From positions 96,001-160,000 of IMG/VR virus record IMGVR_UViG_3300009540_000001: DNA of 64,000 nucleotides, one strand, 5' to 3'. Below, piece after piece: positions 30,477 through 33,668 of this stretch. This DNA is from a virus (lineage: Duplodnaviria > Caudoviricetes). The position numbers were made by a program, and so were the translations under genes. The first letter of the stretch is position 1. Each line of letters opens with the position of its first letter. The notes below the pieces were generated by a model. That model saw nothing but the letters and a program-made list of their open reading frames with translations. It did no database searches and had not been told where the DNA came from.

Positions 30477-30776
30477 TCAGCACCTCTCCTTGACCCACAC
30501 CCGCTCGAGCTCCACCAGCGGCGCCTGCGTCTTCGCCGCCTCGTACTTTTCTCGGGCGGTCTTCGCCTTCTGCTCGAGCTCTTGAAGGTTCAGGAGCTCC
30601 TTCTTCAGGAACACGTCTCTGGCGTCCTCTGCGCTGTCCGACAGCGTGCACTCATGGAAGATGCGCCCGTGACTGCTCACGACGAGACGCTCGTCGAGCG
30701 TGTCTCCGGTGTTGAGCTCTTGCACGATGAGCTTGCCGTCATGTGTTGTGCGGCCATCTGTGATGTACTTCTTCAT
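30477..30776 (-). CDS. Hypothetical protein (paralog of 21753-21986)
   Basis: KKYITDGRTTHDGKLIVQEL; ATGA coupling. Confidence 0.6.
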   Translation of the reverse strand: MKKYITDGRTTHDGKLIVQELNTGDTLDERLVVSSHGRIFHECTLSDSAEDARDVFLKKELLNLQELEQKAKTAREKYEAAKTQAPLVELERVWVKERC

Positions 30777-31027
30777 TCGTCTATCTCCCAGTCGCTTGCC
30801 CAGCTCTCGTACTGCGCGCGGAGCTTGCTGATCTCGTAGTCGTCTTCGTCGAGGGCGAAACGTATCCCGCCGCCCCCGGTCGTGTTCCCGCACTGGATCT
30901 GCGTGTGCGTCGCGGAGCTCGTTCCATCCCCCCAGCCACCCCCATCGGCCGTGTCGTACTGCGCCCCGAAACGCCATATGTACTCGTCGTAGGCGTAGAC
31001 GCTGCGAGGGTTTTCTTCGTAGCTCAC
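30773..31027 (-). CDS. GDG-YEE family microprotein
   Basis: GGGWGDG..QYES; N-terminal SYEE. Confidence 0.65.
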   Translation of the reverse strand: MSYEENPRSVYAYDEYIWRFGAQYDTADGGGWGDGTSSATHTQIQCGNTTGGGGIRFALDEDDYEISKLRAQYESWASDWEIDE

Positions 31028-31227
31028 GGATCTACGCCTTCCTCGTAGCGTTTCTGGACGCGGTATCCGAACGTGAAGTCGCTGCTGCTCCCTCCCTGCG
31101 TGTCACCGTTCTGAACCATGCCCCACCCGTCGCCCCAGCCATCGCCTCCCGACGTGTTGTACTGCGGGCCGACGCATCCCAGCTGGTCAGGGTCTACGCG
31201 GTAAAGGTCGCGCGCGTTGTGCCTCAT
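31024..31227 (-). CDS. GDG-YEE family microprotein
   Basis: MRH..GGDGWGDGWG..RYEEG. Confidence 0.7.
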   Translation of the reverse strand: MRHNARDLYRVDPDQLGCVGPQYNTSGGDGWGDGWGMVQNGDTQGGSSSDFTFGYRVQKRYEEGVDP

Positions 31228-31448
31228 CCTCTCCTCGGCCCTTCTCGGTATTCGGGATACGGGTCACGAACCTGGCGTCGGTACGCTTCGCCGTTGGCGC
31301 CCATTCCGTCCCCCATGCCGTAGATGTGCCACCCGTCTCCGTACCCGTCTCCGGGAGCTTGGTACGGCGTCGCGTGAACGCCCCCTAGAGCCCCCGCGCT
31401 CCCGCCCCCAAGGGGGTACTCCCGGCCGGCGTCGTGCTCGTAGCTCAT
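31224..31448 (-). CDS. GDG-YEE family microprotein
   Basis: PGDGYGDGW..GDGMG..EYREG. Confidence 0.65.
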   Translation of the reverse strand: MSYEHDAGREYPLGGGSAGALGGVHATPYQAPGDGYGDGWHIYGMGDGMGANGEAYRRQVRDPYPEYREGPRRG

Positions 31449-31624
31449 GCGTTGTACTCCCTTGGTTCGTCGTACTCGAACGCGCTCGCGTCGAAGTACC
31501 CGTTGCCGCTCGGAAGGGCGCACCACGGCTGAGCCATGCGACCCTCGTAGAAGTCGTAGCCTTCGTAGGGGCAGACCCCGTGGCCATCGCCGTCGCGTTC
31601 GACCGCGTCGGAGACGCGCTTCAC
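31445..31624 (-). CDS. GDG-YEE family microprotein
   Basis: GTG start; DGDGHG..GNG..EYDE. Confidence 0.65.
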   Translation of the reverse strand: MKRVSDAVERDGDGHGVCPYEGYDFYEGRMAQPWCALPSGNGYFDASAFEYDEPREYNA

Positions 31625-31917
31625 GCCGTCAGCTTCTTGCGGATCTGCACGAGCCCTTGCTCCCCCGGCTCCTCCGGGTGCGGATGCGGGTGCGAGTGCC
31701 CAGGGCTCTTGAGCTTCACGACGACGCCCATCGCCTCGATCTCCGCCATGGGCACGCCCAGCAGCTCCTCGGCCTGCTCGCGCAAGCTCAGGCGATGCTC
31801 GTGCGGCATGTCGTCCTCGGGGACCTCGACGTCGATGGTGATGACGGTGCGCTGCGTCGCCGCGTCGTGCAGGTACGTCAGGGTGGTTTTCTTTAGGTCT
31901 TCTCGTCCTTGTTTCAT
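31621..31917 (-). CDS. FtsH ternary system domain X3-like protein
   Basis: D..T....ITID....EDDMPHEH...LR signature (recalled from the family, not searched). Confidence 0.6.
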   Translation of the reverse strand: MKQGREDLKKTTLTYLHDAATQRTVITIDVEVPEDDMPHEHRLSLREQAEELLGVPMAEIEAMGVVVKLKSPGHSHPHPHPEEPGEQGLVQIRKKLTA

Positions 31918-32165
31918 CGCGTGATCTCCTCGTAGGCGTTTTGAATCGCGGCGCCTTGATACGGCTGTCCAACCGCGTAGGCGTCATCGTCGTATCCGGC
32001 GGGCGGCCACTCGACGTCCCCGTCCATCCCGCCCTGCTGCGCGGTGCCGTACCCGTCGCCGTGGCCGTTGCCGCTTTCGGTGTTGAACTGCGTCTCGAGG
32101 CGTGCGGCGTCGTAGAAGGCCTCGTTCACGCCGTAAAGGTTGCCTGGGTGGCGCTTGAAGCTCAC
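31914..32165 (-). CDS. GDG-YEE family microprotein
   Basis: GNGHGDGYG..AYEEITR. Confidence 0.7.
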   Translation of the reverse strand: MSFKRHPGNLYGVNEAFYDAARLETQFNTESGNGHGDGYGTAQQGGMDGDVEWPPAGYDDDAYAVGQPYQGAAIQNAYEEITR

Positions 32166-32734
32166 GCCTTCACCACCACCCGCACCTCATACGTCCCGCC
32201 CACGTCGCCCCGCTCGTTCAACGACTCGAGCGTCCCCATCTCTCGCGCGCGCTGCTCGATGGCCTCGCGGTACGTTCGGTTCAGCAGGACTTGCAGCTCC
32301 TGCCTCGCTTGCGGCTCGAGCGCTGTCAGACGCGCCAGGTTCTCGCGCTCGGTCTTCTCTTTGGCCTTCACCTTCTCGGCCTCGTAGATGCGGTCGCGGG
32401 CCTGCTCCTCCGTCTCGTCCTGCCGTACGACGCCCTTCACCTCGATCGCGGTGACCGTGGTCGTCCGCGTCACCGTGATCTCCTTGCCGTCGGGCGAGAG
32501 GCGCATCTCGGCCTCCTCGAGCGCGCGCGTCAACGAGCCGTCCGGGTGCTCCGTCCAGCCCGCCTCGCGCATGCGGGCCTTGAGCGCTTCGACCATCCCC
32601 GAGTTCGGCAGGATCGGAAGCATCTTCACGTGCAGTGTCACGACGTCTTTGCTGTTGACGTCTTCTCCGTCTTTCTTGGTGAGGATGATGCTGATGGGCT
32701 CGAGTTCCAGTTCCAAGTTCATTCCGCAGGGCAT
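32162..32734 (-). CDS. FtsH ternary system domain X5-like protein
   Basis: D..TL..KMLPILP..M.EAL...M...GW..and EL...LNR.YREAI.QRA..MG.L signature (recalled, not searched). Confidence 0.6.
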   Translation of the reverse strand: MPCGMNLELELEPISIILTKKDGEDVNSKDVVTLHVKMLPILPNSGMVEALKARMREAGWTEHPDGSLTRALEEAEMRLSPDGKEITVTRTTTVTAIEVKGVVRQDETEEQARDRIYEAEKVKAKEKTERENLARLTALEPQARQELQVLLNRTYREAIEQRAREMGTLESLNERGDVGGTYEVRVVVKA

Positions 32735-32737
32735 GGG

Positions 32738-32983
32738 TCAGTCCTCCAGGTCCAAGGCTGCCAAGTTGATCATGTAGGTCGCCGGGTTCGAGTCCTCTGA
32801 CTCGTCCGAGTCGTACTCGTTGTGGATGTCTTCGTACGCCGCCTGGCCGACGCCGCCGTCGCCCTCGGAGGTGCAGTTGTCTGCGAGGGTCTCGAGGACC
32901 GACCACACGTCGCCGTTCGTGAGAAGCGTGTCGGAGCCGTAGCCGTTGCCGTCTTCGCACATGACGTAGGACATCCGAATCAC
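32738..32983 (-). CDS. GDG-YEE family microprotein
   Basis: DGNGYG..EGDGG..AYED; GTGA coupling. Confidence 0.55.
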   Translation of the reverse strand: MIRMSYVMCEDGNGYGSDTLLTNGDVWSVLETLADNCTSEGDGGVGQAAYEDIHNEYDSDESEDSNPATYMINLAALDLED

Positions 32984-33453
32984 GGCGCCCACCACGCAGG
33001 CGGCTTCCGATGATGCGCCCACCGCGCGAACGCACTCTTGTCCTTCAGATAGAAGGTTCGATACGCCGCGACGGCGTCAGGTCCGCGATAGGCCTCGGGC
33101 ATCGTCTGCACGAACGGCGTGCGCCGTACTTGTGTAAACACGAGTTCGGGCGCCCGGACCTTTACGGCGTGAAGAACCTGGCGCGCCGCATGAACACCCA
33201 AGAAGCGCAGGGTGTACTCGTCACACAGCGCGAAGCCGTGGGCGAGCGCCCACTCGAAGTTGCCTCGCGACGCGCCTACCCACTTGGTAGCGGGATGGCC
33301 GGTGTGCGAAGGCTTGTAGCCGACGTCGAGCCCCTGGGAGCGTACGACCGTCGAGAGCATCTGCGCCGTCTCCGTGGGCATCTTTACGACGTGTTGGTCG
33401 CAGGCCATGCGGGCGGCGGTGACGGGATGTACGTGAAGTACGAAGAGGTTCAT
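32980..33453 (-). CDS. DenV-like pyrimidine-dimer DNA glycosylase family protein
   Basis: MNLF.L..P..AA...CDQHVVKM..E.AQMLST..HP..W..EY..RF..H..AYR.FY..K..P.WW. Confidence 0.8.
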   Translation of the reverse strand: MNLFVLHVHPVTAARMACDQHVVKMPTETAQMLSTVVRSQGLDVGYKPSHTGHPATKWVGASRGNFEWALAHGFALCDEYTLRFLGVHAARQVLHAVKVRAPELVFTQVRRTPFVQTMPEAYRGPDAVAAYRTFYLKDKSAFARWAHHRKPPAWWAP

Positions 33454-33668
33454 CGCCCGACGTTCCCCGCGTTCTGCTCGTACTGAAAGCTCGCGTGGCA
33501 CTTCACCTGCCGATCGAGCGCGACGTCCCCGCCGTCCCCACCGGAGAAACCCCAGACGCCGTCTGCGTAGCCCGCGCCCCAGCCGTCGCCGGTGATGCCG
33601 GCTTGATCAAAGCCGTACACGCCGGACAGGGCGCCATCGCCGTCCGGGCTTCGTCCCTGTTCGTTCAT
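33450..33668 (-). CDS. GDG-YEE family microprotein
   Basis: DGDG..GDGWG..GGDGG..QYEQ. Confidence 0.7.
   Translation of the reverse strand: MNEQGRSPDGDGALSGVYGFDQAGITGDGWGAGYADGVWGFSGGDGGDVALDRQVKCHASFQYEQNAGNVGR

Follow-up and report, generated by a model that had tools for sequence, protein, structure and literature searches.

A phage-borne pair of X5 and X3-analog genes of the predicted FtsH ternary system, present without its motors

The stretch of DNA analysed here, called the window below, comprises the 64,000 nucleotides located at bases 96,001-160,000 of the IMG/VR virus record IMGVR_UViG_3300009540_000001 (Duplodnaviria; Caudoviricetes). On its minus strand, it carries two small genes, hereafter X5 and X3a, whose products of 190 and 98 amino acids (aa) belong to the fvmX5 and fvmX3-analog families, i.e. 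to two named accessory domains of the "simple" radical-SAM subtype of the FtsH ternary system. This system, which comprises an FtsH-type AAA+ protein, a MoxR protein and a vWA protein, was predicted in multicellular bacteria, Myxococcota included, by Kaur, Burroughs, Iyer and Aravind (2020, eLife 9:e52696, PMC7159879), and ternary systems are predicted to operate as immune or apoptosis-like machines (PMC7159879). The supplement text of that paper mentions neither X5 nor X3. Judging from their sequences, X5 and X3a form an intact, co-transcribed two-gene sub-module of host type, which comes without its partner enzymes.

The X5 and X3a genes

The original prediction, made from the letters of the window, had assigned the two genes to the X5 and X3 families, and profile hidden Markov models do detect a similarity to fvmX families, which is firm for X5. 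The Pfam model fvmX5 (PF20003) matches the X5 protein over profile positions 12-180 of 187 with 72.1 bits (E 7e-20), above the cut-off of 24.2, which makes it a member of the family, and the same model recovers X5 at 71.4 bits in a six-frame search of the phage. A profile of bacterial pair-type X5 proteins (described below) gives 182 bits. All ten columns that are invariant in an alignment of 23 X5 sequences from three context types are kept in the phage protein, which contains the two motifs noted earlier (MLPILPNSGMVEALKARMREAGW and ELQVLLNRTYREAIEQRAREMG) and carries an N-terminal MPCGMNLE extension.

The "X3" half of the assignment stands in part, the family being more exactly that of the X3-analog. 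The corresponding Pfam model (PF20002) gives X3a 22.9 bits (E 1e-4), a value that does not reach the cut-off of 27, and the six-frame search gave 22.2 bits. The X3a proteins of 16 bacterial pair-type loci were made into a profile, which contains bacterial genes located after X5 only and no phage sequence. It matches the phage X3a at 88.6 bits (E 5e-26), its sole match in the six frames; for this reason, we regard the phage X3a as a true homologue. It is worth noting that two of these 16 bacterial proteins were scanned against PF20002 and scored 31.3 and 29.7 bits, both above the cut-off, and that an operon-type X3a (95 bits to Pfam) used as a phmmer query matched the phage X3a at E 5.8e-8. The EDDMPHEH motif of the original prediction is present as PEDDMPHEH at residues 33-41, and the residues P38, H39, E40, H41, L53 and G54, invariant in the X3a of all context types, are kept in the phage. 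The invariant PHEH motif, together with a tail rich in His, makes it probable that X3a is a small protein that binds metal. PF20001, also considered as an fvm family, was discarded as irrelevant, being DUF6428.

Both open reading frames (ORFs) behave as coding frames of the minus strand, with a GC content at third codon positions (GC3) of 0.89-0.90 and a higher one at first than at second positions (GC1 > GC2). They belong to a single translationally coupled chain (Table 1), in which X3a lies 252 nt downstream of X5, with one gene for a small GDG peptide between them. In the order of transcription, the chain reads: upstream GDG gene, GGAGGA, X5, GTGA, interposed GDG gene, ATGA, X3a, GTGA, downstream GDG gene.

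Table 1. Genes of the X5-X3a locus, with their positions in the window
Feature	Position	Strand	Remarks
X5 gene, bare-pair type	32162..32734	-	190 aa; identified by Pfam, pair-type profile, invariant residues and signature columns
X3-analog (X3a) gene	31621..31917	-	98 aa; identified by pair-type profile and PHEH motif; tail HSHPHPHP
Interposed GDG peptide gene	31914..32165	-	83 aa; between X5 and X3a, with 4-nt start/stop overlaps with both
Upstream GDG-type peptide gene	32738..33022	-	Last codons hold the GGAGGA ribosome-binding site of X5
Downstream GDG peptide gene	31445..31624	-	59 aa; GTG start overlaps the X3a stop codon

The AlphaFold2 model of X5 (predicted local distance difference test score, pLDDT, 78; predicted template modelling score, pTM, 0.66) combines a beta-sheet that has one helix with a long helix (about 58 residues) and a hairpin at the C-terminus, the N-terminus being disordered. 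With this fold, Foldseek retrieved nothing from the PDB at E <= 0.001, the BFVD gave no match, and the best VIA-wide Z of 7.5 corresponded to generic alpha+beta domains (KA1-, BamC-like), within the background range; in the ESM Atlas, fvmX2 (TM 0.61) is the sole structural link of X5 outside the X5 clusters themselves. The model of X3a is poor (pLDDT 61), with a small beta-beta-alpha-alpha-beta unit and a disordered tail, and its fold search (best Z 4.4, on this low-confidence model) provided no lead. Sequence-profile searches of the PDB found nothing, and neither protein has a match in PADLOC (which contains no model for X5 or X3a proteins), NCBIfam or PHROGs. In view of the model, the long helix of X5 appears suited to oligomerisation, and X5 is probably the structural partner of X3a.

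Absence of the other components from the complete phage

The source phage (172,374 bp; about 66% GC) has direct terminal repeats and is rated complete. It can be regarded as very novel, since PHROGs recognises few of its proteins (a thymidine kinase, a helicase and phrog_624). The full stretch was recovered in activated-sludge metagenome runs, and the phage or its close variants were assembled repeatedly (contigs of 172,374, 172,354, 64,344 and 9,228 bp).

No AAA+ ATPase or effector of the system had been seen in the window, and this proved true of the whole genome. At E <= 0.01, the complete phage has no match to the FtsH-type AAA+ model PF00004, the control being positive in 14 of 14 genomes, and two FtsH proteins of the system used as phmmer queries retrieved nothing. 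For MoxR, the one match to PF07728 (AAA_5) was that of a P-loop in an unrelated phage ORF, at 14 bits, and two bpMoxR queries found nothing in phmmer. The radical-SAM model PF13353 (Fer4_12) has no match in the phage, and the ivWA, X6, X7 and radical-SAM (rSAM) proteins of two operons gave no phmmer match below E 0.01, the Pfam models of ivWA, X6 and X7 not having been run on the phage. The phmmer queries comprised 18 components of the system, taken from three bacterial loci (rSAM, X6, X5, FtsH, X3a, X7, bpMoxR and ivWA), and X5 and X3a were the only phage matches. Hence, unlike the FtsH ternary system of bacteria, the complete phage has an orphan pair, from which FtsH, MoxR, the vWA component (ivWA), X6, X7 and radical-SAM are missing, and the search of the remaining genome revealed no complete system.

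Bacterial relatives of the pair and their three arrangements

The relatives of X5 numbered eight in a word-indexed search and 531 representatives in an exhaustive profile search, nearly all of the latter standing alone as proteins 170-200 aa long. When 185,579 species genomes were scanned for patterns, 16 loci were obtained with an X5 that is 36-46% identical to the phage protein, all of them in metagenome-assembled genomes (MAGs) of the Myxococcota lineage (some were filed by their submitters as Deltaproteobacteria or Proteobacteria). At each of these 16 loci, X5 is followed by an X3a ORF (about 100 aa) whose start lies 3 nt ahead of the X5 stop codon. The same X5-X3a synteny occurs on Myxococcota-like metagenome contigs (three long and one short) with a GC content of 71-73%. 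A first metagenome scan, based on poor N-terminal patterns, found nothing, and a second one gave bacterial contigs of this synteny only. No other phage with the pair was found among GenBank phages by tblastn or in IMG/VR by pattern scans (using the phage protein and alignments of the pair type, the nearest relatives and the operon type), the latter scans relying on short patterns that do not prove the absence of the pair from other phages.

Three arrangements can be distinguished in bacteria. Type A is the full operon rSAM-X6-X5-FtsH(AAA+M41)-X3a-X7-bpMoxR-ivWA (loci L028 and L029), in which FtsH is flanked by X5 and X3a, the latter overlapping the FtsH stop codon. Type B is rSAM-X5-X3a alone (L030). 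Type C is the bare pair, X5-X3a with a 4-nt overlap and no system gene within 10 kb, in a conserved neighbourhood (ABC transporter, DUF4340, Vut_1 and an alanine dehydrogenase (AlaDH)-like gene). Two Myxococcota genomes, those of L028 and L029, possess the full operon plus a bare pair.

Several features of these relatives were observed in passing. At L016:10929-12284, and at the same position in seven loci, a 4-nt overlap links the X3a stop codon to a gene whose product (about 440 aa) is related to alanine dehydrogenase/transhydrogenase, and X5-X3a-AlaDH-like may constitute one operon in Myxococcaceae-like genomes. The operon FtsH at L028:6412-9918 (minus strand; G004, a Myxococcota MAG) carries in its AAA domain an intein with a LAGLIDADG endonuclease, and is 1168 aa long as compared to 702 aa in L029. 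Finally, P0040 is a protein of 1345 aa with 19 repeated stretches, each matching X5 residues 48-92; the unit corresponds to the helix and beta-hairpin of the X5 N-terminal domain, so that P0040 is a repeat protein derived from an X5 sub-domain.

Resemblance of the phage genes to the bare pair of Myxococcota

The phage genes resemble the bare-pair lineage of Myxococcota, unlike the operon-embedded copies, as suggested by the following lines of evidence. First, in a tree of 85 X5 sequences, a split supported at 99 separates all 14 type-C sequences and the phage from a clade of types A and B; the phage falls in a subclade (support 96) that also holds P0001, a variant of its own X5 (92% identity), and its nearest X5 relatives P0002, P0009, P0003 and P0004 (47-54% identity). 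Second, the identity to the phage X5 is 35-46% for type C, 30-34% for type A and 18% for type B, and that to the phage X3a is 43-48% for type C versus 25-32% for types A and B; for the operon copies as such, the identity to the phage proteins is no more than 30-34% (X5) and 29-32% (X3a). Third, the phage X5 shares the pair-type signatures MxCGxNLE (the N-terminal extension), NRTYR, RAR and, at its end, VVVKA, whereas the operon types have QRVY, KAA and TIKVR at those columns. Fourth, the phage X3a shares with the bare pair the PEDxMPHEH motif and a His-rich tail, which is confined to type C and the phage and is absent from operon-type X3a. The closer metagenomic homologues of the phage X3a (P0170-P0177; 51-63% identity) also share the HPHPHP tail.

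The bare pairs (e.g. L002-L017, L031, L032, L034 and L045, in Polyangiales and Myxococcaceae MAGs) have the same families in the same order as the phage and, like it, no adjacent FtsH, MoxR or vWA gene. They differ from the phage in that their two genes overlap directly by 4 nt, whereas the phage has a GDG gene between them; in that their genomes hold the rest of the system elsewhere, whereas the phage has none of it; and in their sequences, which show only 35-48% identity. In addition, position 14 of X3a is Thr in the phage lineage alone, while being Arg in 24 of 24 other aligned sequences from all three context types, and most N-terminal arginines of X3a have been lost in the phage. This R14T change is a possible mark of a mimic.

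Because all 16 related genome loci are from Myxococcota, the pair points to this phylum. The myxobacterial host group proposed in the original prediction is thereby indicated, the pair being the only host clue, and we infer that X5 and X3a were captured as a unit from a Myxococcota host.

The bare pair and the dispersed FtsH system

The distribution of the system was analysed in 201 Myxococcota species, a single sample in which relatedness inflates any statistic. The fvmX5 family occurs in 13 of the 201 genomes, and ivWA in exactly those 13; long-form fvmX7 is present in the same 13, with ten additional weak matches in ORFs of about 500 aa. In three genomes (G001, G002 and G125), the bare pair provides the sole X5 copy, and X7 and ivWA are located on other contigs. 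In G001 and G002, X7 and MoxR make up a two-gene operon and ivWA stands at a third locus, where in G001 it adjoins a double-AAA protein. In G005, FtsH, X7, MoxR and ivWA form a cluster in which no X3a separates FtsH from X7; the X5 and X3a genes of this genome are at type B and type C loci.

Since X5 and ivWA share the same 13 genomes and the pair-only genomes have unlinked X7 and ivWA genes, the pair does not look independent: it is probably not autonomous but a relocated part that acts in trans. On this genomic evidence, the FtsH system appears to be modular and, in some Myxococcota, a dispersed regulon. The genome-wide co-occurrence therefore keeps viable the idea of an interaction between the phage pair and the machine, even though the phage copy is not derived from an operon.

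Further kinds of dispersal or disruption were noticed. In L040 (G005:C27:45000-64999), X7 is split into three ORFs, perhaps by frameshifts or assembly errors, and a Ser/Thr kinase-Sel1 repeat gene lies on the opposite strand between MoxR and ivWA. In L043 (G116) and L044 (G151), an operon-type X5 (starting with MSRGYR) is solitary, FtsH, rSAM and X3a all being absent for about 2 kb around it, and the X7 and ivWA genes of these two genomes are on contigs other than that of X5.

Retention of X5 and X3a and turnover of the GDG genes

At least five X5 alleles and at least five X3a alleles, all intact, were found in the phage lineage, in at least four studies dated 2017-2025. Across 585 nt of X5, one related contig shows 40 nucleotide differences, which cause only ten, mostly conservative, residue changes; this rough count corresponds to a ratio of nonsynonymous to synonymous substitutions (dN/dS) well under 0.3, a rough sign that X5 is under purifying selection. 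Two 151-nt contigs from an RNA library match parts of X5 and the interposed GDG gene without any difference. They constitute a weak sign of transcription, DNA carry-over being possible.

When contigs from sludge and aquatic metagenomes were compared with positions 30,700-33,600 of the window, X5 and X3a were found to be kept at about 90-93% nucleotide identity. In the same contigs, the GDG genes 31024-31227 and 31445-31624 are cleanly missing (the latter as a 176-nt skip in three contigs), the middle of the interposed GDG gene is replaced, roughly 200 different letters stand in place of the upstream GDG gene, and an additional segment of about 620-640 nt separates X5 from the interposed GDG gene. 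As GDG genes are deleted or replaced in contigs that keep X5 and X3a, the latter are the constant elements and the GDG genes are the turnover filler. The original prediction had described the pair as embedded in a peptide array: X5 and X3a do sit among GDG genes, but this embedding looks incidental. Taken as a whole, its interpretation stood for the family, the orphan status and the host group; to it are added the resemblance to the bare pair and the genome-wide co-occurrence described above.

Possible roles of the phage pair

Small phage proteins that disable host proteases or immune complexes through mimicry include lambda CIII, which acts against FtsH, T4 PinA, which acts against Lon, the anti-CRISPRs, and orphan antitoxins derived from parts of host systems. 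The same logic, i.e. the carriage of a small protein, or of a host-subunit homologue, without the catalytic parts, would apply to X5 and X3a, although these inhibitors have no sequence or fold relation to them and the activity considered here is one that we infer, on an uncharacterised target. From the sequence comparisons and the genome-wide co-occurrence, we tentatively propose, with a probability of roughly 0.42, that the host-derived subunit pair plugs into the dispersed FtsH machine of the host and probably blocks it. The phage X5 and X3a would be made together during infection, and would dock onto the X7-MoxR, ivWA and FtsH-type components of the host, displacing its own X5 and X3a. As the pair brings no motor or effector, the most likely outcome would be a blunted or stalled machine, and X5 and X3a would then mimic host subunits, either as decoys or in a dominant-negative manner. 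That the region serves in anti-defence, as originally suggested, is a hypothesis.

Several points weigh against this proposal of a blocked host machine. The only paper found on the FtsH ternary system is the computational prediction of 2020, none of the components is known to have been characterised experimentally, and the defence role of the system is itself a prediction, taken here as an assumption. The identity to the sampled bacterial pairs is only 35-46% (X5) and 43-48% (X3a), values that suggest an old capture or an unsampled source, and with which present-day docking is not guaranteed. The approximately unbiased (AU) test does not reject a position of the phage subclade at the base of the bacterial pair clade (p 0.165), and for this reason we claim no donor within that clade. 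R14T is a single site, and neither PADLOC nor the fold matches provide any functional hint. Lastly, purifying selection and kept invariant residues would fit a fully functional pair equally well.

Such a functional pair is the basis of an alternative that we regard as possible though unlikely, namely that the phage supplies working X5 and X3a proteins to keep the host machine active or to redirect it for its own benefit, for example so that host proteins are remodelled or degraded, or phage complexes assembled with its help. It agrees with the retention of all invariant residues, with alleles that look purified, with the strict co-occurrence with ivWA and X7, which suggests that the pair normally works with the machine, and with the fact that MoxR-vWA pairs operate elsewhere as assembly chaperones, including in the tail assembly of an archaeal virus (reviewed in PMC7159879). 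However, a host endowed with the machine already owns X5 and X3a, so that a second working copy brings no obvious gain, and the phage-specific loss of Arg14 in X3a hints at an altered function. We consider it improbable that X5 and X3a were co-opted to serve the approximately 50 small GDG peptides of the phage, for instance as a chaperone or a metal-loading partner, a role that would account for their position within a translationally coupled peptide array. The 4-nt overlaps do join X5, a GDG gene, X3a and another GDG gene, and in the full bacterial systems the predicted partners include a radical-SAM enzyme and a small peptide; yet the adjoining and interposed GDG genes are lost, replaced or supplemented in close relatives where X5 and X3a stay, GDG genes are scattered genome-wide as opposed to a single X5-X3a pair, and the bacterial loci are devoid of matches to the GDG profile as the phage is devoid of a radical-SAM gene.

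That the pair is an autonomous module, with a His-rich metal-binding X3a and its partner X5 ensuring, e.g., metal buffering as an ordinary auxiliary function, also has little probability in our opinion. The invariance of PHEH, the HxHxH or HPHPHP tails of the pair-type and phage X3a proteins and the physical separation of the pair from the system in many genomes speak for it, but they have to be balanced with the identical patterns of X5 and ivWA in the 201 genomes, with the fact that no genome seen has the pair without the system, and with the absence of the His-rich tail from operon-type X3a. The view that X5 and X3a are neutral passengers, or the decaying remnant of a larger captured system, could account for the presence of just two of the eight system genes. 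It is very improbable, given that every allele seen, whatever its year or site, has both ORFs intact, that the differences are mostly silent while the neighbours turn over, that their GC3 matches the phage and that the bare pair is a natural unit in bacteria.

The families of X5 and X3a were known; the published description does not contain a motor-less phage pair, the bare-pair lineage or the perfect co-occurrence of that lineage with unlinked system genes. The pair is a unit able to move, including into a virus. Two accessory subunits retained under selection without the motors amount to a natural experiment on which parts matter in the virus-host contest, and these two small proteins can be expressed against a host system. 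It is conceivable, if rather doubtful, that X5-X3a serves the FtsH/MoxR/vWA machine as a portable adaptor or regulator and that the diverged phage copy is the first known viral inhibitor of a ternary NTPase "conflict" system. If true, it would provide the first experimental handle on the antiviral role of ternary systems and designate X5 and X3a as their control point. The pair also provides a host clue for a novel 172-kb sludge phage, pointing to Myxococcota, a group with few known phages.

Neighbouring genes

The interposed GDG gene has a GC3 of 0.84 and no match in Pfam, NCBIfam or PADLOC. Its terminal YEE codons (TAC GAG GAG; 31960-31917, minus strand) provide the GAGGAG ribosome-binding site of X3a. 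A profile of the phage GDG peptides detected nothing in any of the bacterial X5/X3a loci, where the interposed gene has no counterpart, and the GDG peptides were consequently rejected as candidates for the "FtsH-associated peptide" of the system. Among close phage variants, the GDG genes of the region 30700-33600 occur as presence/absence cassettes, and the non-GDG genes between them remain collinear.

The same minus-strand gene run includes, at 32980-33501, a gene for a 173-aa protein. Its N-terminus resembles pyrimidine-dimer DNA glycosylases (Pfam Pyr_excise, 28 bits), and the protein strongly matches phrog_624 ("DNA binding protein", E 2e-51).

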